A DNA stretch of 64,000 nucleotides from Salaquimonas sp. (lineage in GTDB: Bacteria; Pseudomonadota; Alphaproteobacteria; Rhizobiales; Rhizobiaceae): NCBI GenBank assembly GCA_049680405.1, contig JBAUHS010000010.1:3777-67776 (forward strand). Direction: 5' to 3'. The notes under the pieces were generated by a model. That model worked only from the letters and a program-made list of their open reading frames with translations. It was not told the DNA's origin and did not search any database. The stretch's first letter is position 1; every line of letters begins with the position of its first letter. Shown in pieces: positions 4,409 through 62,205 of this stretch. The position numbers and the translations under genes are program-made.

Positions 4409-5269
4409 ATGATAGACCACCCGCTTCATATTCTGGAATGGCTCGCTGATATGGGCGATGACGTTCCTCTGGCTGATGCCCCCATCAATCGTTTTGGAGA
4501 AAGCGAGATGGCGCAAAAGGCTGCCAGTGAGCGCGCAACCAGCGCCGGCAAAGCCTCAACCGCTGGCTCAGGTGGTTCAAAAGGTAGCTTACAAGACCGC
4601 GTTGCCGCCATAAAGCAGACGACTAGTGCTCGAATACCAGCAAAACAAGCGGCGGTGCTGCCCGATGAATCAGTAGTGACAGCTGCCAGCAAAGCTGCGG
4701 CCAGTGCAGAAACCATAGAGGCGTTAAAAGCAGCAATTAGGGGATTTGAAGGCTGTAATCTGCGACTTAATGCCAAAAACTCTGTTTTTGCATCTGGCGA
4801 TCCAAATGCAAAATTGCTGCTGATTGATGAGCATCCAGGGCGTGACGAAGATCAATCAGGCGAACCATTTGCAGGGCGTTCAGGTTCCCTATTGCAAAAG
4901 ATGCTGGCTGCAATTGGCCTGACCCTTGATGATACCTATCGCGTCGCTGCTTTGCCTTGGCATCCCCCGGGCAACCGCAGCCCAACGCTGCCTGAACTTG
5001 AAATTTGCAAACCCTTTTTGAAACGCCACTTGTCGCTGGCCAAGCCAAAACTCATCATCACCATGGGCAACACTCCGGCTCGAATGCTGATTGAAAGCAA
5101 TTCGCAAGTGTTGAGTCTTCGCGGAAAATGGATGCAAAGTGATATGATCAGCGATGAACAGCATTGCCTTGCGACGCTCAATCCTGGCTTTCTATTGAAA
5201 CAGCCTGCGCAAAAGAAACTCGCCTGGTTCGACCTTTTGATGATCAAAAGCAAACTGGCCGAAAGCTGA
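4409..5269 (+). CDS. Uracil-DNA glycosylase, family 4, with Ala/Ser-rich N-terminal extension
   Basis: 286 aa. The C-terminal core has the family-4 pattern LLLIDEHPGRDEDQSGEPFAGRSGSLL...NPGFLL. It is divergent from ETF-QO, as is common in alphaproteobacteria. Confidence 0.75.
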   Translation: MIDHPLHILEWLADMGDDVPLADAPINRFGESEMAQKAASERATSAGKASTAGSGGSKGSLQDRVAAIKQTTSARIPAKQAAVLPDESVVTAASKAAASAETIEALKAAIRGFEGCNLRLNAKNSVFASGDPNAKLLLIDEHPGRDEDQSGEPFAGRSGSLLQKMLAAIGLTLDDTYRVAALPWHPPGNRSPTLPELEICKPFLKRHLSLAKPKLIITMGNTPARMLIESNSQVLSLRGKWMQSDMISDEQHCLATLNPGFLLKQPAQKKLAWFDLLMIKSKLAES

Positions 5270-5288
5270 TTTGGCCTCGTTAGCTAGC

Positions 5289-6374
5289 TTACGCCCGTGC
5301 CGCTAAAAACGACTTGACGGAAATGTTCGACCATTTGCCCAGATGTTGTGCGGCGCCAGTATAACTTGCCACGATACGCGCTGTCAGTTCGTCACGCTCT
5401 GCCAATTCAGACATGACCTCGCCTGTTGCTTGCTTGGCAGCAGCGATCACATCTTTAGGAAATTCACGCAATATAACGCCATGGTCTTTTTGTAGCATTG
5501 CCAATGCAGTTGCATTTTCCCATTCTGCATCGCACAGGGAAATCATGTTTACCCATTCACAGGCTTTGGCCACAATTTGCTGCAAATCCGTTGGTAGGGC
5601 ATCCAATGCCTTCAGCGAGACCAGTGCTTCACCGGTTCCGTTTGGCTCGTGAAAGCCGGGAAAATAGTAATTCTTGGCAACTTTATAAAAGCCCATGGCG
5701 CTATCACTAAAAGGGCCCAGAAATTCAGTTGCATCAATAACGCCCGTTTGAAGGCTGGTGAATATTTCACCGGGAGCAAGGCCAACAGGGACAGCGCCAA
5801 GCTTTTGGACAACCAGGCCACCTAGACCGGGCATACGAATTTTGAGTCCTTGGAAGTCCGCAACCGACTTGATTTCATTGCGATACCATCCTCCCATTTG
5901 ATAACCGGTATTGCCCGCCATGAAAGGTTTCAAGCCAGCTGGCTTATACAATTCGTCCCAAAGTTCCTGGCCGCCGCCTTTTGTGATCCATGTATTATGT
6001 TCAAGAGGTGTCAGGCCAAAAGGTGCCGCGGTAAAAATTGGCGCTGCGGGCATTTTACCTGCCCAAAACAATGGCGCTGTATGGGCAATTTCAGCGGTGC
6101 CATTTGAAACAGCTGAAAACACTTCCAATGGCGGCACCAATTCTCCTGCAGCAAACAAGCGAATAGTCAGCCGTCCATCGGAAAGTGATGTGATTGTATC
6201 AGCCAATAGTTGCGCCGAAACGCCGGGACCGGGAAGATTCTTCGGCCAGGAAGTCACCATTTTCCATTCGAAGGTTTCACCTGCCGCATTGGCGGCTTTT
6301 ACCGGGAGAGCCAAACCTGTGGCTGCGGACATTCCGGCAAAGGCCTTTAACGCTTGTCTTCTTGTAGAATTCAT
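5289..6374 (-). CDS. TRAP transporter substrate-binding protein (DctP/COG4663-type), orphan
   Basis: 361 aa. Tat-like signal MNSTRRQALKAFAG...A. The core matches the DctP family (FEWKMVTSWPKNLPG...). No DctQ/M genes are adjacent. Confidence 0.8.
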   Translation of the reverse strand: MNSTRRQALKAFAGMSAATGLALPVKAANAAGETFEWKMVTSWPKNLPGPGVSAQLLADTITSLSDGRLTIRLFAAGELVPPLEVFSAVSNGTAEIAHTAPLFWAGKMPAAPIFTAAPFGLTPLEHNTWITKGGGQELWDELYKPAGLKPFMAGNTGYQMGGWYRNEIKSVADFQGLKIRMPGLGGLVVQKLGAVPVGLAPGEIFTSLQTGVIDATEFLGPFSDSAMGFYKVAKNYYFPGFHEPNGTGEALVSLKALDALPTDLQQIVAKACEWVNMISLCDAEWENATALAMLQKDHGVILREFPKDVIAAAKQATGEVMSELAERDELTARIVASYTGAAQHLGKWSNISVKSFLAARA

Positions 6375-6420
6375 GGGTTTGAGCTTTCTGATAATATATC
6401 GATGACCGGCCTAAGAGCGC

Positions 6421-7245
6421 TTATGTCAGAGGCCATAGATTATGAAAATGATGGACAGGACCATGGCCTTTTCCAACTTGCAGCTGATCAGCTGCGGCAA
6501 TCGCCCCAGTCAGCCATATCTTGGCCGCACCAACGGCCTCAATCAGCGTCATGCCTTTCGCGAGATTTGCGGCGATGGCGGATGACAGCGAACAACCGGT
6601 CCCATGGGTATTTTTCGTGTTGATGCGAGCTGCGGTGAACCATTCTTCGCCGGATTTTGATATCAACAGATCGGCGCTTTCTACAGCTTCGCTATTGTCT
6701 GTAGCGTGGCCACCTTTCATCAACACCGCATTTGTGCCAGTTGCCAAAATGCCTCTTCCCTGTCCTTTGATTTCATTCGGGCATGCTGCTAGCTTGCCAT
6801 GGGTCAGGCGGGCAGCTTCATGAAGGTTCGGCGTAACCAAAGTGGCGATGGGAAATAGTTTTAACTTCAACGTATCAACAGCCTCATCAGCAATCAAAGG
6901 GTCTCCGCTTGTTGTAACCATTACCGGATCAACAACAATGTTTTTTGCATTCCATTTAACCAAAGCCTTCGCAACCGTCTCAATAATGGATGGCGTTGCA
7001 AGCATGCCAATTTTGACCGATGCAATATTCAAATCGGAAAACACAGCATCAAGTTGAGCGGTGATAAAATCTGTTGGCACATCATGAATGCCAGTAACGC
7101 CCAATGTGTTTTGTGCGGTTAAAGCCGTGATGACCGACGCGCCGTAAACTTCGTTGGCCGAAAAGCTTTTCAGATCCGCTTGTATGCCCGCGCCGCCGCC
7201 TGAATCAGACCCGGCTATTGTCAAAGTAATTGGAATTTGACTCAT
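6421..7245 (-). CDS. thiD: Hydroxymethylpyrimidine/phosphomethylpyrimidine kinase
   Basis: 274 aa. [18 protein letters not shown] and the C-terminal [12 protein letters not shown] motifs. Overlaps thiE by 4 nt. Confidence 0.9.
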
Positions 7246-8683: not shown

Positions 8684-8719
8684 GAGGTGTAGAAAACGCG
8701 CTTGTTCAGGATAGGACTT

Positions 8720-8815
8720 GCGCTCATTCCCTACGCCGGCATGACCCGGATCAGGTTCAAGGAGTTAGCAGACTTCTACCTGCCTCTCAGCCTGATTGGA
8801 TCAGGCACCTCCATG
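8720..8815 (-). promoter_or_regulatory. TPP (THI-box) riboswitch in the thiMED leader
   Basis: The minus strand reads GGAGGTGCCTGATCCAATCAGGCTGAGAGGCAGGTAGAAGTCTGCTAACTCCTTGAACCTGATCCGGGTCATGCCGGCGTAGGGAATGAGCG. It contains the conserved CUGAGA and ACCUGAUCnGGnnnAUGCCnGCGUAGGGA cores of the TPP aptamer. Confidence 0.9.
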
Positions 8816-8887
8816 AGATGACAGTTACATAACCCCTTGTGAGAATGAGTTCAAGTTTACTGTAATATTATGTAGCATAACAGCCTA

Positions 8888-43486: not shown

Positions 43487-43897
43487 TCATTCGGTTATGG
43501 GTTCGGTGACTGCTCTGAATGTAGAACTTGCCGTGAAAAACCTGTTGTCTTTCGTGCGATTGCTGGTGGTTGTTTCCCATGTGAAATTGATCAGGTGGTG
43601 GCCATCAATCAGTTTTGGCATTGCTTTAAGGGCAGCTTTTACGGCATCAACTATCACTCCGACTTCCTTGCGCCCTTTCGCAGAAGACCAGGCGATAATT
43701 TCAATGAGATGCTCTTCTCCCGCTTCTGTGCCAGTGCTCCAATCGTCACTCTCAATTTTGCTAAACACCAGATAAGGAAAAACTGAATGATCTGGAACGC
43801 CGTCAAAGACCTGCCGACCACCAAGAATTGAAAGCAGGGGTTGATCACCTATCAAAGTATCGAAAATCGCCTTTTGGACTGAAATGGCCGCGTTCAT
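43487..43897 (-). CDS. GTA g8-type tail terminator/completion protein (DUF3168)
   Basis: 136 aa. DUF3168-like pattern VFDGVP....PYLVF...SDDWST...GEEHLIEIIAWS. Confidence 0.75.
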   Translation of the reverse strand: MNAAISVQKAIFDTLIGDQPLLSILGGRQVFDGVPDHSVFPYLVFSKIESDDWSTGTEAGEEHLIEIIAWSSAKGRKEVGVIVDAVKAALKAMPKLIDGHHLINFTWETTTSNRTKDNRFFTASSTFRAVTEPITE

Positions 43898-44070
43898 CTT
43901 TGTTGCTTCCTGAATTTTGAATCACCGGAAAATTTCTTGTTTCTGGCCTGTTTCTTCCGACTTTCATCACGTGTATTTCTGTGTTCAGCAGGAATATCCG
44001 TTTTTGGGAAAAGTGCTTTTTGCAAGGTTACCGAAAGGCTTTGGGTTGTGAATTCGACTGAAAACTTCAT
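43894..44070 (-). CDS. Unannotated 58-aa ORF between g7 and g8 (below the ORF-track length cutoff)
   Basis: My own minus-strand translation is MKFSVEFTTQSLSVTLQKALFPKTDIPAEHRNTRDESRKKQARNKKFSGDSKFRKQQR. The ATG overlaps the g7 stop (ATGA) and the stop overlaps the g8 ATG (ATGA). It exactly fills an otherwise empty 169-nt gap. Confidence 0.35.
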   Translation of the reverse strand: MKFSVEFTTQSLSVTLQKALFPKTDIPAEHRNTRDESRKKQARNKKFSGDSKFRKQQR

Positions 44071-44402
44071 TCCGTCTCTCTAACTTCACAAAGAAAGTAT
44101 CTTCCACTTTCATCATGGTCCGTGACAACATCGATCAAGAAAGTTCTGGAGCCAGAGACAAATCTCATACCCGGCTCCACCCCCGGTCTCTGGCGAATGT
44201 AAATCCAATGGGTGTGCTCGGTTCTGTTGCTATCTGCCTCTGCAACCAGAATTCCTTTGATCGGAATCAGTTTTGCCCACACATCAAATTGTGGGATCCA
44301 GGTTTCACTTACTCCGCCGCAGCCATCTTCTGACTCTGTTGGAGCTTCAAGCGACAATCTTACATTAAAATGACCGGACTGAAGAAATTGATGAACTGTC
44401 AA
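44067..44402 (-). CDS. GTA g7-type head closure / head-tail adaptor protein
   Basis: 111 aa. TIGR01563-like pattern WAKLIPIKG....A........THWIYIR......GMRF....RTF.I. Overlaps g6 by 4 nt. Confidence 0.8.
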   Translation of the reverse strand: MTVHQFLQSGHFNVRLSLEAPTESEDGCGGVSETWIPQFDVWAKLIPIKGILVAEADSNRTEHTHWIYIRQRPGVEPGMRFVSGSRTFLIDVVTDHDESGRYFLCEVRETE

Positions 44403-44968
44403 AGCCGCACCCTCCGGAAGGGAGCAATAAGCGTTTGAAACCCTTGCGGCTCATTGGCAGGCTGCTGGTCAATAGTGACGGCACCGCGAAACTCATAATT
44501 ATGGGCGACCAGCAGCAGTAGCGCCCGACGCAAACTGTCAGGAACATCTATTCCGGTATTGCCAAACCCAACCACAAGGTCGATCTCTACACCGTTAATT
44601 TTGCGTTGCGTATGAACTGCTGTCTTCACCAGCAAGCGAGAGGGAGTTGAAATTCTGTCTAGCTCCAGAGCTCCCAGCGGTACGCTTTCGGGCGAGCCAT
44701 TTGCATCATAGATGCGCATATCAAGAACCCCCTGAACAGGTCCTTTGCCCAATCTGAATTGATTGCTGTCTGAAAAGCCGTCAAAATATTCGCGCCAGAT
44801 CTGGGTGATGAGACTGACGCCAAGAATGACCTCAAGGTGATTCACAGCAGCCTTGATCAATCCAGTGAGATAATCATCATCATCTGAAGTCTCGATGCGC
44901 AAATGGCTTTTTACTTCGGCCAGAGTCAGCGGCAATGCAGCTGGTGGAGTGATTAAAACGGCAACCAT
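44399..44968 (-). CDS. GTA g6-type head-tail connector (phage gp6-like)
   Basis: The track ORF (to 45229) runs into the capsid gene. The start was reassigned to the Met at 44968, giving MVAVLITPPAALPLTLAEVKSHLRIETSDDDDYLTGLIKAA, the gp6-like signature. Confidence 0.75.
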   Translation of the reverse strand: MVAVLITPPAALPLTLAEVKSHLRIETSDDDDYLTGLIKAAVNHLEVILGVSLITQIWREYFDGFSDSNQFRLGKGPVQGVLDMRIYDANGSPESVPLGALELDRISTPSRLLVKTAVHTQRKINGVEIDLVVGFGNTGIDVPDSLRRALLLLVAHNYEFRGAVTIDQQPANEPQGFQTLIAPFRRVRL

Positions 44969-44995
44969 AAATTCTTCCAAATTGAGGGATGAATG

Positions 44996-45070
44996 AAAAG
45001 GCCCCACCCGGTTTAAAATACCGGATGGGGCCGCGATACACGCCGGCAAGGCACGAGGAGGCACCTTGCC
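44996..45070 (-). terminator. Tandem hairpins after the capsid gene; the distal one is a strong intrinsic terminator
   Basis: Minus strand, hairpin 1 is GGCAAGG-(12 nt)-CCTTGCC (45045-45070). Hairpin 2 is GGCCCCATCCGG-TATTTTAAA-CCGGGTGGGGCC (45000-45032): 12 bp with one G:U pair, followed by TTTTCATTC. Confidence 0.7.
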
Positions 45071-45089
45071 AAGAGCCGGGAGGAGAACT

Positions 45090-46424
45090 CTAAGCGGTAC
45101 CGAACTTGATGAGCTTGATGGCGTCAAAGTCTTGAATGCCGCCACCCACTCGCTTCGTGGTGTAGAAAAGAACATAAGGTTTGGCTGAATAAGGATCCCG
45201 CAATACGCGGACACCAGCACGATCAACAATCAAATAACCCCGATTGAAGTCCCCAAAAGCGATGGACAGGCTGTCTGTTGCTATATCCGGCATGTCTTCA
45301 GCCTCCAGAACCGGGAAGCCCATCAACATGGCTTTTTCACCAACTGTTGCAGGTGGTTGCCATAGATAATTGCCATCGGCGTCTTTCAGTTTACGAATGT
45401 CGGCCTGCGTGCGGCGGTTCATCAACCAGTTGGCATTTTGCCGATAGCCTGCCTTGAGAGAATAGATGCTTTCGACCAGGACATCAGAAGGGTCGGTGCT
45501 AACAAAATCACCATCACCGCCTGTTGGCGTATACCCAAGATTTCCCCAGCTCCAACTTGTTTCAGCAACTACCGGATTATCCAAAATACCCTTTGGTTTA
45601 TTCACCCCATCGCCGCTGATAAATGCGGCGCTTTCCTGCTCGGCAAAGGCCGTTTCAACTTCCTGCGCAAGCCAGGCATCAATATTGATGGCTGCATCAT
45701 CCAACAGCGCCGAAGTCGCCGCCGGCATTGCATACAGTTCCATTGTTGGGAATTGCAACTCAGATAACGACGGTGCTGCGGTTTGCGGTCGAAGATCAGT
45801 TTCTGAAACCCATCCTGTGGCGGGGCCTGTCATGGCAAATGGTTTCTTGTACATCGACGAAGATACCGTGATGACTGAAGCCACTGAACGAATAGGGGAA
45901 ATCATCGATAGACGACGGCCAATTTCTGAAGCCGTTTCGTCCGGCACCAAATACCCGCCATCGGGGTCAGAAGATGAGGACATTGCCTTTTCTTCAAAAC
46001 GTCTCAGATCGTTCTCATTACCTCTTCGCACATAACCATTGAAGGCATTCTTATGCTCGATTGAGGCAATTGAGTAGCCTTTTGAACTTTCCGAACCTGG
46101 CCTGCGGCTTTTCAGAAACAGCTGATCCATCAAATGTTTCTGCTGATCGAGCGCGGAGTTGATGCGGTTCATTTTCTCAGTGGTCACAACATCCGCACCT
46201 ACGCGGGTTTCGACTTGCGCCAAACGCTCGTCATTGGCTTCGCGAAAAGCCTCAAAAGCGATCATGAAGTCATCAAACGCTTCAGCAACTTCGCTGGCAT
46301 TGCCAACTGCAACTGTCGGAGAAAGCGTGGTTTCCATCAGATCGTTTTTACGCGAAAGCGCTTTGGTTTCAGGCGCGGCTTTTCTGCCGCCGGGTTTCCC
46401 CGTTCTGTTTGTCAGTTTATTCAT
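45090..46424 (-). CDS. GTA g5-type major capsid protein, HK97 family
   Basis: 444 aa. N-terminal delta-like region with FEAFREANDERL, and an HK97-fold core (...GGYLVPDE..., FPTMELYAMP, ...VDRAGVRVLRDPYSAKPYVLFYTTKRVGGG). Confidence 0.92.
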   Translation of the reverse strand: MNKLTNRTGKPGGRKAAPETKALSRKNDLMETTLSPTVAVGNASEVAEAFDDFMIAFEAFREANDERLAQVETRVGADVVTTEKMNRINSALDQQKHLMDQLFLKSRRPGSESSKGYSIASIEHKNAFNGYVRRGNENDLRRFEEKAMSSSSDPDGGYLVPDETASEIGRRLSMISPIRSVASVITVSSSMYKKPFAMTGPATGWVSETDLRPQTAAPSLSELQFPTMELYAMPAATSALLDDAAINIDAWLAQEVETAFAEQESAAFISGDGVNKPKGILDNPVVAETSWSWGNLGYTPTGGDGDFVSTDPSDVLVESIYSLKAGYRQNANWLMNRRTQADIRKLKDADGNYLWQPPATVGEKAMLMGFPVLEAEDMPDIATDSLSIAFGDFNRGYLIVDRAGVRVLRDPYSAKPYVLFYTTKRVGGGIQDFDAIKLIKFGTA

Positions 46425-46439
46425 GGTTTTTCCTATGAT

Positions 46440-47135
46440 TTAGGGATGAAAAATGCTGGCAGCTGCTCTGATGCGACTTGCCAACTGGCTTTTCCCTGTC
46501 ACCGCATCGCGCTGGCTTAGGGCATGGCGATAACCTTTGGTAACAACCAATCGAGCATCGCCTCGCGACAGACCGGCATCCCGCACGAGCCATCGCTCAA
46601 ATTCTCTTATTGTAGGGTTCTGTTTGGCTTGCCACGCAACACATGAAGGCATGCTTTTTACGGACTTTATCCGGGCGCTTTCCTGCATGGGAAATGTAAC
46701 GACAGATATCTCCCATAAATCCGCTTCTAGGATGCGTCTCGATCCGGTAAGTGGGTCCTGGCGGGACCGAATGGTTCGAAACCCGATTGACAGACCGTCA
46801 ACTGCTCCAGTTCGCATGAGCTCAAGAACCTCTCGGCCTTTCACCGCCCCGGTGGTAATCTTACCACGAACCTCCAAACCATGCTCGGTCTCAGATATGG
46901 CCTCCCAAACTCCGATCGGCTCATCAGGATTGTGCTGAAAAAGCATACGAATATTGGATGCTCCGCGCTTTGCCAAGGAAGCTGAAAATGCACCCGGCGC
47001 TACAATGTCATTGCCCAGATCCACCTCATTATACACGCTCGCATAACCAGAAAAATTTCCGTCCAATCGAACCTGCTCAAGATTGCTCGACACAAATTTC
47101 GTCTCACGCAATTTCGCCAAACTATTGCTGTTCAT
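46440..47135 (-). CDS. GTA g4-type prohead protease, HK97 family
   Basis: 231 aa. FSGYASVYNEVDLGNDIVAPGAF...MLFQHNPDEPIGVW...GLSIGF motifs. Confidence 0.9.
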   Translation of the reverse strand: MNSNSLAKLRETKFVSSNLEQVRLDGNFSGYASVYNEVDLGNDIVAPGAFSASLAKRGASNIRMLFQHNPDEPIGVWEAISETEHGLEVRGKITTGAVKGREVLELMRTGAVDGLSIGFRTIRSRQDPLTGSRRILEADLWEISVVTFPMQESARIKSVKSMPSCVAWQAKQNPTIREFERWLVRDAGLSRGDARLVVTKGYRHALSQRDAVTGKSQLASRIRAAASIFHP

Positions 47136-50625: not shown

Positions 50626-50654
50626 ATACTATCAAATCACCGTCTCGGTGTCAA
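50626..50654 (-). promoter_or_regulatory. Candidate sigma70-type promoter for the GTA cluster
   Basis: The minus strand reads TTTTTATTGACA-CCGAGACGGTGATTTGA-TAGTAT. The -35 TTGACA lies at 50649-50654, the spacer is 17 nt and the -10 TAGTAT lies at 50626-50631. An A/T-rich UP-like stretch precedes it. It lies in the ycgN-g1 spacer. Confidence 0.45.
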
Positions 50655-59457: not shown

Positions 59458-59874
59458 ATGACTGATATCAATGAGATTATTGAAAATTTCGAATTCCTGG
59501 AAGAATGGGAAGATCGCTATAAATATCTGATTGAACTTGGCGATCAACTTGAGCCGTATCCTGAAGAATTGCAGAACAGCGAAACGAAAGTACAAGGCTG
59601 TGTCAGCCAGGTCTGGATTGCTAGTAATACTCATAACGGCCATGATCCGATTATCGACTTTATCGGAACTTCCGACGCGCATATCGTACGCGGCCTGATT
59701 GCTATCACATTGGCAATTTTCTCGGGCAAAACGGCAAGCGAAATCGGTTCAATTAATGAGCAGGCAATCTTTACCTCACTTGGACTGTCAGAACATATTA
59801 CGCCACAGCGCTCGAATGGTCTTAGATCCATGGTCGCGCGGATCAAGGAAATATCCGCAAACGCTAAGAGTTAA
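59458..59874 (+). CDS. sufE: SufE-family sulfur acceptor protein
   Basis: 138 aa. The FEFLEEWEDRYKYLIELG...KVQGCVSQVWI motif contains the active-site Cys context. Confidence 0.85.
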   Translation: MTDINEIIENFEFLEEWEDRYKYLIELGDQLEPYPEELQNSETKVQGCVSQVWIASNTHNGHDPIIDFIGTSDAHIVRGLIAITLAIFSGKTASEIGSINEQAIFTSLGLSEHITPQRSNGLRSMVARIKEISANAKS

Positions 59875-59897: not shown

Positions 59898-60734
59898 TTA
59901 TACAAAAGAATCCGGACGATAGCTGCTATCTCCCCAATGGTTCATTGGTTGCTTCCTTGGAGACGGGCGCAACCCATAATGTCTGACCAGCTCCCGCAAT
60001 GCAGTGCGCAGCATCAGCTTGGCTGAACGTGGCGGCCAATGAAGCTCTTTCTCTATTGTCTCAAGCCCTTTGAGAAAACAGCAAACATCCAGCAATATGT
60101 TGGAAAGCTCCGGCCCGAGCGCATTGACCATCTTCTCTATTCGTTTTCGGGCATCCATGGCAAAGTCAGAAATATCGGCTCCCATATTTGCGCTGCGCGA
60201 GCCCGTGGCAACACTTGCGGACCAGTTTGCTGAAATTCTTGGCTGTAACTGAGATTTTTCAAAATCAGACCGTAAACGCTCCCCAGCCTGGAACTCAAAT
60301 TCATTTAACCAGCATTTTCCATGCTTGTCCTTACGGGTATAGAGCCGGGACAAGGGCGATTCATTTTCGTTTACAGTGACCTGACTGGCTATTCCATTTT
60401 CCGCGATCGTTTTGACAACCGGAGCCAAATGTTGCGAGCGGTAATCCATATCAGGGTGCAATGCCGCAACCAGAACTGCCCTTCCCTCCGTAGTGATCGT
60501 GATGTCGTTTTCACATATGCTTAAAAATCCTTGCTTCTTGCATCTGAAAACTAGGTCAGATTCAAATTTGTAGGTTTTACCTTTTAGCTGAATCAGAAAC
60601 TGCGCGGCGCTCGCTTGAAAATGGGCGACCTCGTTGTTTGCATTTAGCAGCAGCTTCAAAAGCCTTAGCTGAGCCTTCTTTTGGTCTTTGCCTTTTGCAT
60701 CAGTCATGGGTTTTCTGCCTGTCAGCCAATTCAC
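59898..60734 (-). CDS. GafZ-like protein (DUF6456-type; C-terminal half of the GafA GTA activator / anti-terminator)
   Basis: 269-278 aa. The blocks ESPLSRLYTRKDKHGKCWLNEFEFQAGERLRSDF and LLDVCCFLKGLETIEKELHWPPRSAKLMLRTAL match what I recall as the DUF6456 signature. It overlaps the upstream DnaA-like HTH gene. Confidence 0.6.
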   Translation of the reverse strand: MNWLTGRKPMTDAKGKDQKKAQLRLLKLLLNANNEVAHFQASAAQFLIQLKGKTYKFESDLVFRCKKQGFLSICENDITITTEGRAVLVAALHPDMDYRSQHLAPVVKTIAENGIASQVTVNENESPLSRLYTRKDKHGKCWLNEFEFQAGERLRSDFEKSQLQPRISANWSASVATGSRSANMGADISDFAMDARKRIEKMVNALGPELSNILLDVCCFLKGLETIEKELHWPPRSAKLMLRTALRELVRHYGLRPSPRKQPMNHWGDSSYRPDSFV

Positions 60735-61146
60735 TCAGCGCCCGAGCGGAAACCAAAAGATTTTCCATTGCTTCCAGGCGCTTATCAAACTCCTGATTAT
60801 CCCGGAGATCTTCAACCAGCTTGCAGGCATGGGAAATCGTGGTGCGGTCACGGCCCATAAAATCTGCGACCCTGTGATAGGGAACCGAAAATACCGTATG
60901 CATCAAATACATCGCTACTTGGCGGGCAAGGCAGATATCGGCTTTCCCTCTTGAAGTGCCTGTCAGTTCCTTTGGCTCAATTCTCTCAAGAATGGAAACC
61001 AGCTTCAATACGAGGTTTCCCGCTATCCCATCATATTCTTGCTGTGTCTGGCTGACGTTTATTGGTTTGACCGCAGCAATAGGCGATCCCACTGATATGG
61101 GTCTGGGTTTATTATTCAAATAATCAGTTACGCTGTGATACATCAT
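60700..61146 (-). CDS. GafY-like protein (DnaA domain IV-type HTH; N-terminal half of the GafA GTA activator)
   Basis: 148 aa. ARQVAMYLMHTVFSVPYHRVADFMGRDRTTISHACKLVEDLR is a Bac_DnaA_C-type HTH. A GGGAGA RBS precedes the ATGATG start. Confidence 0.6.
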   Translation of the reverse strand: MMYHSVTDYLNNKPRPISVGSPIAAVKPINVSQTQQEYDGIAGNLVLKLVSILERIEPKELTGTSRGKADICLARQVAMYLMHTVFSVPYHRVADFMGRDRTTISHACKLVEDLRDNQEFDKRLEAMENLLVSARALSELADRQKTHD

Positions 61147-61731: not shown

Positions 61732-62205
61732 TTATTTGGCTTTTCGATAGCCTTTTTTCCGGCCCAAACCTTTTTCGCGGGCAAGGCTGGATCGCTTTTC
61801 AGAATAGCTCGGTGCGACCATTGGATAATCTGGTGGCAAATCCCATTTTTCACGATATTCTTCTGGGGACAGATCAAAATGCGAGCGCAGATGACGTTTC
61901 AATGATTTGAAATGCTTTCCATCCTCAAGGCAAATTATGTAGTCGCGAAATACTGATTTTTTTGGATTCACAGCTGGCTTAAGGTCTATTTTAACTTCGC
62001 TCTTACCATTTATAGACAGGCTTTTGAATGCCCGGTGCACTTCACCAATCAGGTTTGGTAAATCAGTGGTCGAAACAGGATTATTGCTAACATAGGCAGC
62101 AATAACTTCTGAAGTGAGCTCGACAATCATGGATTCATCATCAAACTCTTGTTGTTTCATATCAATTTCTTCAAGCATGGGTTTTCGTTCTTTCTTATCA
62201 TCCAA
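61732..62205 (-). CDS. mucR: MucR/Ros family zinc-finger transcriptional regulator
   Basis: ELTSEVIAAYVSNNPV..DLPNLI and the CLEDGKHFKSLKRHLRSHFDLSPEEYREKWDLPPDYPMVAPSY zinc-finger core. The start may be a downstream Met. Confidence 0.9.
   Translation of the reverse strand: MDDKKERKPMLEEIDMKQQEFDDESMIVELTSEVIAAYVSNNPVSTTDLPNLIGEVHRAFKSLSINGKSEVKIDLKPAVNPKKSVFRDYIICLEDGKHFKSLKRHLRSHFDLSPEEYREKWDLPPDYPMVAPSYSEKRSSLAREKGLGRKKGYRKAK

Follow-up and report, generated by a model that had tools for sequence, protein, structure and literature searches.

How might a single operon deliver one structural protein in great excess over the others? The question is raised by a 64,000-nucleotide stretch of DNA from Salaquimonas sp. 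(contig JBAUHS010000010.1; hereinafter, the window), which carries a gene cluster for a gene transfer agent (GTA) of the type known from Rhodobacter capsulatus (RcGTA), with a terminator-like hairpin in the spacer between the genes for the HK97-type major capsid protein (g5) and the head-tail connector (g6). The g5 protein is present in 145 copies per RcGTA particle, exceeding every other protein (PMC9765227), and the resulting need for unequal expression of g5 and the tail genes is consistent with a terminator located after g5. An earlier interpretation of the window made from the letters alone (hereinafter, the sequence-only reading) had suggested that this site might set the capsid-to-tail stoichiometry, an idea that fits the 145 capsid copies. 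Here we argue that the hairpin is probably, although by no means certainly, a conserved post-capsid terminator and message stabilizer that derives from HK97-type phages and raises the expression of the capsid above that of the connector and tail proteins. In our literature search, no description of a hairpin between g5 and g6 of GTAs came to light.

A strong hairpin in the only non-coding gap of the GTA cluster

The spacer between g5 and g6 is exactly 121 nucleotides long, the length given in the sequence-only reading, and its transcript folds far more stably than expected from composition: the minimum free energy (MFE) is -59.4 kcal/mol compared to -40.3 +/- 3.5 kcal/mol for dinucleotide shuffles (z = -5.5), and none of the 200 shuffles was as good. 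Most of the interest lies in the hairpin closest to g6 (hereinafter, the main hairpin; see Table 1 for all features), which begins 57 nucleotides past the capsid stop codon, outside the coding sequence. At -28.7 kcal/mol (-27 to -29 kcal/mol across folds), it surpasses in stability every other compact hairpin on both strands of the 64 kb, the next unrelated one reaching -23.8 kcal/mol, and the sequence of its arm is unique in the window. In a terminator scan of the 36-55 kb region, the main hairpin ranked first of 24 sites, and the coding strand of the cluster contains no other strong terminator-like site. It displays the sequence features of a Rho-independent terminator, namely, a GC-rich stem-loop on the transcribed strand, a U-tract and a non-coding position after a stop codon.

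These results largely bear out the sequence-only reading, in particular the outcome of the folding and terminator scan that it had proposed as checks. Its 12-bp GC-rich stem followed by a U-tract was correctly described, the 12 pairs including one G-U, and a closing U-A pair brings the count to 13. The distance of about 28 nucleotides to the g6 start was a fair estimate, given that 31 nucleotides separate the ATG from the end of the stem and 27 from the end of the UUUU run. Both hairpins that it placed on the coding strand are present in the MFE fold; a third one, small and overlapping the stop codon of g5, had not been listed. The claim that there is no internal promoter also holds for the class searched, as a consensus scan confined to sigma-70-type promoters found none between the main hairpin and g6.

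From g1 to g15, the genes of the cluster are tightly packed or overlapping, and only between g5 and g6 does a non-coding gap exceed about 30 nucleotides. In a mechanical listing of open reading frames (ORFs), g1 and g2 overlap, with no spacer between them. The apparent gap between g7 and g8 is filled by an unannotated, very basic 58-amino-acid ORF that is coupled to both neighbors by ATGA stop/start overlaps, so that the g5-g6 spacer is the sole real non-coding gap. The g6 start is corroborated by tblastn alignments of relatives, which begin at residue 1. A longer version of g6, starting at TTG 45229 and running through the spacer, was considered and rejected: 87 codons are open in the window compared to 0-4 in the related loci L001, L002 and L006, which suggests that the extension is open by chance.

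The main hairpin is conserved as a structure at a fixed position

For comparison, we retrieved 80 genome loci encoding related capsid proteins (numbered L001 onwards), were able to map both the end of the capsid gene and the beginning of g6 in 76 of these, and analyzed the 64 in which the g5-g6 spacer was 20-200 nucleotides long (usually 66-170 and typically about 100). The closest genome by capsid sequence is a Salaquimonas metagenome-assembled genome (MAG; Hyphomicrobiales), with 83% capsid identity. Of the 64 spacers, 56 contain a hairpin with z < -2; the best spacer hairpins have a median energy of -25.1 kcal/mol compared to -16.6 kcal/mol in windows of the same length from the capsid genes (p = 7.5e-23), and a median of 31 nucleotides separates the hairpin from the g6 ATG. 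Even in three loci with long insertions in the spacer (L019, L064 and L078), the hairpin still adjoins g6. The case of L019, a Hyphomicrobiales MAG, is illustrative: a 1.7-kb insertion (5257-6979) separates capsid and g6, and the hairpin (6913-6956) lies about 23 nucleotides upstream of g6.

We then aligned 39 orthologous hairpins over a 10-pair stem using MAFFT. In this set, 90.8% of the stem cells are paired, a value inflated by the choice of the hairpins for folding, compared to 38-53% when the partner columns are slid. All 10 stem pairs have changed on both sides, and the number of cells with such double changes is 39 compared to 7.4 in shuffles, with none of the 500 shuffles as high. A covariance model built from this alignment (R1) and run over the window together with the 76 loci (732 kb, E <= 1) yielded 52 matches, all but one of which fall inside the g5-g6 spacer; 15 loci absent from the alignment are among those matched, and the 64-kb window gives exactly one match. 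Because the stem covaries and the R1 matches fall almost exclusively in the spacer, the main hairpin is position-specific and evolves under selection as a structure.

These observations bear on the alternative that the hairpin arose as an inverted repeat by chance, or belongs to a dispersed DNA repeat, and plays no part in the operon. The total number of terminator-like sites in the consensus scan is indeed unremarkable, with 24 found and 22.8 expected from shuffles. However, this particular hairpin is the strongest in 64 kb, its arm is unique, and it is position-specific and covaries across dozens of genomes, so that we consider the chance explanation hardly credible. A dispersed repeat resembling repetitive extragenic palindromes was rejected, given that the arm sequence occurs once in the window and R1 gives a single match in the 64 kb.

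The U-tract is less uniformly present than the stem. Among the 51 hairpins at the conserved position, drawn from the 64 spacers, 30 (about 60%) are followed by at least five U in the next eight nucleotides. The closest scorable relatives (L001-L004, L007 and L009) have 5-8 U in this segment, and the window has 6.

One of the sampled loci is anomalous in its label: L072 (JAHREI010000009.1), a contig assigned to Bacillus subtilis SK6B4, bears an alphaproteobacterial GTA cluster with a spacer nearly identical to those of L071 and of Pseudochrobactrum (L073), and this cluster is probably a contamination of the Bacillus subtilis SK6B4 assembly.

Post-capsid hairpins in phages

A close counterpart comes from phage HK97 itself. 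In its RefSeq record (NC_002167.1), the interval 5192-5213, which separates gp5 (major head protein) from gp6 (adaptor), is marked as a putative terminator. As in the window, this is a GC-rich hairpin (GGGGGCGGG-GAAA-CCCGCCC, followed by UUUU) that occupies the same place in the homologous protease-capsid-adaptor gene order, and it folds at -26.6 kcal/mol (z = -4.6). Unlike the window, the HK97 spacer is only 33 nucleotides long, its hairpin ends 5 nucleotides before the gp6 ATG, and there are no CCUCC loops; the terminator is putative by annotation only and shows no sequence similarity to the window hairpin. Two further putative terminators in the same record (L253; 2193-2220 and 2944-2963) flank the major tail subunit gene, so that the abundant structural genes of HK97 are bracketed by hairpins.

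Beyond HK97, we found a GC-rich hairpin right after the capsid stop in four more phages, namely, SfI, Pseudomonas VW-6S, a Desulfofustis phage and an uncultured siphovirus, whose capsid proteins are 41-48% identical to g5. In 80 IMG/VR contigs related to the uncultured siphovirus, the 120 nucleotides following the capsid stop fold at -22.8 kcal/mol compared to -18.1 kcal/mol for controls (p = 3e-11). Several post-capsid hairpins of HK97-type phages lack a U-run.

Similar arrangements are known from more distant phages. In T7, the terminator T-phi is located after capsid gene 10. In SPP1, a terminator is predicted at 8775-8815, directly after capsid gene 13, the stop codon of which is at 8777 (PMC6316719). 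Like the HK97 site, the SPP1 site includes a U run of UUUU or longer. In both T7 and SPP1, as is proposed for the window, an intrinsic terminator follows the gene for the most abundant structural protein, and the downstream connector and tail genes require read-through; these are nevertheless unrelated phages using unrelated polymerases (T7 employs its own RNA polymerase), and the SPP1 site is predicted only. The g5-g6 hairpin is, then, the GTA version of a recognized, albeit mostly only predicted, phage arrangement.

Proposed termination, read-through and message stabilization

The scenario that we favor can be formulated as follows. The hairpin would be an RNA element that came to the GTA from its HK97-type phage ancestor and, in this genome, is most likely a leaky Rho-independent terminator directly after the capsid gene. 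RNA polymerase starting from the cluster promoter would transcribe g1-g5, and a large share of the transcripts would end at the hairpin and its U-tract. The stable hairpin at the 3' end would also shield the capsid-containing messages from 3' exonucleases. Genes g6-g15 would be supplied by those polymerases that read through, thanks either to the ordinary inefficiency of the terminator or to a GafZ-type processive anti-terminator loaded at the promoter. The outcome would be far more message for the capsid than for the connector and tail proteins. The structure of the hairpin, its strength and position, its compensatory conservation and its phage counterparts are direct observations. From these sequence data, we infer that the hairpin would terminate transcription in vivo, would leak and would stabilize the upstream message, and that GafZ might take part.

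Several observations weigh against this scenario. In the window, only four U precede the first interruption of the U-tract, and the main hairpin has a loop of 7 nucleotides; the efficiency of termination may be modest. Twelve of the 51 hairpins at the conserved position (about 24%) have at most two U in the next eight nucleotides. The hairpin is thus more conserved than the U-tract, which points to selection on the hairpin itself and not necessarily on termination. The alignment used for the covariation analysis consisted of hairpins selected for folding, which inflates the percentage of paired cells more than the counts of compensatory changes and does not generate such changes at aligned positions. 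Finally, the conserved element is documented for Hyphomicrobiales-like clusters and some phages only; a protein search with a Rhodobacteraceae-labelled capsid returned only Hyphomicrobiales-like relatives and no spacers from Rhodobacterales or Caulobacter. The designation of the site as an intrinsic terminator in the sequence-only reading accordingly stands with respect to all sequence features and its top rank in the scan, and is weakened by the lack of the U-tract in about a quarter of the orthologs.

That roughly one in four orthologous hairpins lacks a U-tract implies that termination may not be the whole function, and suggests a second, stem-only role, the obvious candidate being protection of the 3' end of the capsid message. 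In the extreme version of this idea, the hairpin acts chiefly in RNA stability or processing, blocking 3'-to-5' exonucleases after endonucleolytic cleavage or downstream Rho-dependent termination, so that the capsid segment outlives the tail segment, with little or no termination at the hairpin. A comparable stabilizer is the intercistronic hairpin of the R. capsulatus puf operon. Such a role would account for the persistence of compensatory conservation in the copies with two or fewer U (e.g. L015, L017, L020, L041, L063 and L068-L070) and for the HK97-type phage hairpins without a U-run. A pure stabilizer, however, needs no U-tract, whereas the window and its closest relatives retain 5-8 U in eight nucleotides, and the HK97 and SPP1 sites have UUUU or longer. 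We therefore regard stabilization with little or no termination as unlikely; the stabilizer and terminator roles are, in any case, compatible rather than exclusive.

The GafZ-like locus and a possible transcription checkpoint

The window also encompasses a pair of overlapping genes, one encoding a protein similar to domain IV of DnaA (GafY-like) and the other a protein of the DUF6456 family, which corresponds to the C-terminal part of GafA and to GafZ. The sequence-only reading had noted a GafZ-like gene at this place, and the identification is upheld by the DUF6456 match, the preceding DnaA-like gene and the flanking genes for MucR and SufE. The order mucR, DnaA-like gene, DUF6456 gene, sufE is the split-gafA arrangement of Hyphomicrobiales (PMC9638019), and the pair parallels gafY-gafZ of Caulobacter (PMC9632790). 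In Caulobacter, GafZ, together with NusA, NusG and NusE, reads through the terminator terGTA as well as the unrelated intrinsic terminator rrnB T1 (PMC11150451).

These findings make it conceivable that the g5-g6 hairpin is a checkpoint that stops nearly all ordinary transcription, with g6-g15 made only after a GafZ-like modification of the polymerase at the GTA promoter. Consistent with such a checkpoint are the split gafY/gafZ-like pair with its typical mucR and sufE neighbors, the ability of Caulobacter GafZ to pass both terGTA and rrnB T1 (PMC11150451), and the status of the main hairpin as the only strong terminator-like site on the coding strand of the cluster. Like the presumed terminator of the window, terGTA belongs to an RcGTA-type cluster, its downstream genes need read-through, and a GafY/GafZ-type pair is encoded in the same genome. 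However, terGTA differs in both the element and its place: it follows gtaT, the gene at the start of the cluster, and is made up of three GC-rich direct repeats of 150 bp that include imperfect inverted repeats (PMC11150451), whereas the window has a single 33-nucleotide hairpin after g5, and the region from 35.5 to 51.3 kb contains no tandem or direct repeats of about 150 bp. Assignment of the window hairpin to the terGTA type was rejected on both counts. Because terGTA differs in kind and place, a link between the g5-g6 hairpin and anti-termination is one that we infer.

The distribution of the hairpin also speaks against a dedicated checkpoint. Similar hairpins are present in HK97, SfI, VW-6S and the Desulfofustis phage, that is, in phages of other bacterial groups, whereas GafA and GafYZ have been described only in Alphaproteobacteria (PMC9638019); this comparison, which involves the hairpins only, suggests that the hairpin is older than any link to GafZ. 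The existence of a strict checkpoint is, in our assessment, a possibility but a rather unlikely one. The statement in the sequence-only reading that the hairpin is exactly the kind of barrier bypassed by GafZ applies in the general sense only, in that GafZ also passes rrnB T1, and does not extend to terGTA, a different element in a different place. Should the GafZ-like protein of the window act as an anti-terminator, its only strong candidate target in the cluster would be the g5-g6 hairpin.

An anti-Shine-Dalgarno-like motif in the spacer hairpins

The sequence-only reading, correct in its description of the locus and partly supported in its interpretation, had overlooked the wide conservation of the hairpin, its counterpart in HK97 and a recurrent loop motif, CCUCC, that resembles the anti-Shine-Dalgarno (anti-SD) sequence. 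At the DNA level, CCTCC is the most common 5-mer of the 64 spacers (47 of the 64), and CCTCCC is the most common 6-mer (39 of the 64). Either CCTCCC or TCCTCC occurs on the sense strand in 43 spacers compared to 5 for the antisense strand and to a mean of 8.9 (maximum 16) in shuffles, and in 0-1 of the 64 flanking coding windows. The enrichment of UCCUCCC in the spacers is statistically solid. The motif lies within 25 nucleotides after the capsid stop in 22 loci, often in the loop of a small hairpin with a covarying stem, in the loop of the main hairpin in 17, and in both places in 4. Among 114 distinct spacers, 52% of the motif sites are in hairpin loops compared to 9.9% of all 5-nucleotide windows. 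The motif was noted in the g5-g6 spacers of L001-L080 and L089-L168.

In the window, the motif appears in the loops of hairpins A and B, the only pair of CCTCC sites within 40 nucleotides of each other on the minus strand. In the close relatives L003, L006, L089 and L001, the capsid stop is likewise followed by a hairpin that has CCUCCC in its loop and is built on a different stem; hairpin B is not kept in the nearest relative, L001. Two further candidate elements in this part of the spacer were rejected, namely, a boxA-like GCUCUU before hairpin B, suggestive of a nut-like site, which by eye is not conserved in L001 or L089, and an attenuator in which the post-stop motif pairs with the 3' arm of the terminator, which amounts to generic pairing between C-rich and G-rich segments and is unspecific in the relatives.

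One conceivable function for such a motif would be translational control of g6, whereby CCUCC pairs with the ribosome-binding site (RBS) of g6, through a long-range helix or a pseudoknot between the loop and the Shine-Dalgarno (SD) sequence, and keeps translation of the connector low or coupled to that of the capsid. The strand-specific enrichment (43 of the 64 sense strands) and the display of the motif in loops fit this possibility, as does the pairing of the post-stop motif with the g6 SD in the MFE folds of L002, L004, L007, L009, L048 and L065. Given its overlap with the capsid stop codon, hairpin A would be melted by a terminating ribosome. However, cognate pairs of motif and RBS do not pair better than non-cognate ones (-7.58 vs -7.71 kcal/mol, p = 0.56); the g6 SD-like site of the window is weak (GGAAG), with a best duplex of just -5.4 kcal/mol; and the motif remains CCUCC in loci where the local SD is AGGAAG. 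Translational control of g6 as the function of the spacer accordingly seems quite unlikely to us.

Alternatively, the end of the capsid message could be released as an anti-SD small RNA (sRNA) that acts in trans on other RBSs, in the manner of the 'cuckoo', CcsR or ar14 RNAs. The CcsR RNAs are cut from a 3' untranslated region. In common with these RNAs and with Atu_C7, the window displays CCUCC(UCCC) in the loops of one or two hairpins that precede a putative terminator (for the cuckoo family, RSs0680/CcsR and ar14, see PMC4615179). Phage hairpins upstream of the adaptor gene match CcsR1 and ar14 below threshold. These come from a subgroup of true HK97-type phages with the order capsid, hairpin, gene of about 140 codons, hairpin with the loop AUCCUCCUCCC, adaptor gene, in which the latter hairpin is directly upstream of the adaptor (L171:2817-2853, L172:2634-2672, and about 510 nucleotides after the capsid stop in L173-L178); their Rfam matches amount to 26.6 bits (E = 0.009) for CcsR1 and 28.6 bits (E = 0.077) for ar14. 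However, all Rfam scores are far under the gathering cut-offs (23-29 bits against 59-65 for the related phage hairpins), and neither ar14 (RF02344) nor CcsR1 (RF02791) gives a match at E <= 10 in the window segment 44900-45160. Homology to Atu_C7 (RF02501) was rejected: the window scores 16.9 bits against a gathering threshold of 45, true members from metagenome loci score 160-197, and only the architecture is alike. In the one locus checked (L083), the genuine Atu_C7 element is flanked by a DUF922 gene and a ferredoxin gene, outside any GTA cluster.

The fit to the cuckoo family is imperfect in dimensions as well. The definition of this family calls for 2-4 adjacent hairpins of 24-50 nucleotides, with CCUCCUCCC in a loop of 9-27 nucleotides, a helix of 6 bp or more and linkers no longer than 10 nucleotides (PMC4615179). 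The window has two adjacent hairpins, the loops of which, CUCCUCCC with 8 nucleotides (in a 20-nucleotide hairpin) and CUCCUC with 6 (12 with a shorter stem), fall short of these sizes. Furthermore, the window hairpins are intercistronic in a phage-derived operon, unlike the context of the cuckoo RNAs and Atu_C7. We deem the release of such an sRNA very unlikely.

A broader and decidedly speculative version of these ideas, which we likewise consider improbable, is that the capsid-connector junction of HK97-type phages and RcGTA-type clusters is an ancient, hitherto unrecognized RNA module, composed of an anti-SD hairpin with CCUCC(UCCC) and a terminator, that shuts off ribosome-binding sites or is released as a cuckoo-type sRNA. 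Such a module might be the source or a relative of the multi-copy CcsR and ar14 sRNAs of Alphaproteobacteria.

Other features of the cluster and the window

The GTA cluster is complete and occupies the 50.5-36.1 kb region of the minus strand, with matches to Pfam and NCBIfam families following in order from 50109 to 36066: terminase, portal, S78 protease, HK97-type capsid g5, gp6-like connector g6, head completion, tail completion, tail tube, tape measure and g15. This is the RcGTA-type gene order, including the large g15 (1288 amino acids) with its GTA_TIM domain. The 58-amino-acid ORF between g7 and g8 probably represents a genuine small gene of the GTA. We considered and rejected an internal promoter at this site, as the g7-g8 gap is coding and contains no promoter-like site and no structure.

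A near-consensus sigma-70 promoter is located about 100 nucleotides upstream of the g1 ATG (50521), and the putative g1 leader holds a 9-bp hairpin. Such a promoter is odd for a presumably silent cluster because a consensus -35 element made the Caulobacter GTA promoter constitutive (PMC11150451). The sequences just upstream of the g5 start (46449..46425, UCAUCCCUAAAUCAUAGGAA) and the g6 start (44993..44969, UCAUCCCUCAAUUUGGAAGAA), both on the minus strand, are alike, perhaps by chance. Elsewhere in the window, there is a thiamine pyrophosphate (TPP) riboswitch.

Table 1. Coordinates of the principal features of the window (positions in the 64,000-nucleotide stretch)
Feature	Position	Strand	Details
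Main terminator-like hairpin	45000..45032	-	GGCCCCAUCCGGU-AUUUUAA-ACCGGGUGGGGCC; 13 pairs (10 G-C, one G-U); 7-nt loop
U-tract	44991..44999	-	UUUUCAUUC, adjoins the stem on its 3' side; run of four U, with U at 6 of the first 8 positions
Hairpin A (small)	45072..45091	-	AGAGUU-CUCCUCCC-GGCUCU; overlaps capsid stop; anti-SD-like loop; MFE fold
Hairpin B	45044..45071	-	UGGCAAGGUGC-CUCCUC-GUGCCUUGCCG; loop has CCUCC; MFE fold
CCTCC motif sites	45085..45078 and 45060..45055	-	
g5-g6 spacer	45089..44969	-	121 nt
g5, HK97-type major capsid	45090..46424	-	Pfam Phage_capsid, E = 9.6e-92; NCBIfam TIGR01554, E = 1e-121; stop TAG 45092..45090
g6, head-tail connector (adaptor)	44399..44968	-	Pfam Phage_connect_1; TIGR02215, residues 3-188 of 188; ATG 44968..44966
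SD-like site of g6	44978..44974	-	GGAAG
58-aa ORF between g7 and g8	44070..43894	-	unannotated
Near-consensus sigma-70 promoter	50654..50626	-	TTGACA-17-TAGTAT
GafY-like, DnaA-domain-IV-like gene	61146..60700	-	Bac_DnaA_C, E = 9.9e-14
GafZ-like DUF6456 gene (GafA C-terminal/GafZ-type)	60734..59898	-	Pfam DUF6456, E = 1.9e-46; overlaps the DnaA-like gene
MucR gene	62205..61732		
SufE gene	59458..59874		
TPP riboswitch	8711..8822	-	RF00059, 81.8 bits

Implications for GTA biology

A hairpin of this kind may explain how one operon yields 145 capsids and only about a dozen connectors per particle. A single strong, conserved terminator-like hairpin between the head and tail modules presents a defined, testable site in the large group Hyphomicrobiales, at a time when GTA regulation is being studied at the level of transcription elongation, as exemplified by anti-termination by GafZ in Caulobacter. 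The part of the spacer most deserving of follow-up is the anti-SD-like loop motif; if functional, it would add a post-transcriptional layer to the balance of head and tail proteins or else represent a phage-borne anti-SD RNA. More generally, the post-capsid hairpin would tie the expression of GTA genes to a feature inherited from HK97-type phages.

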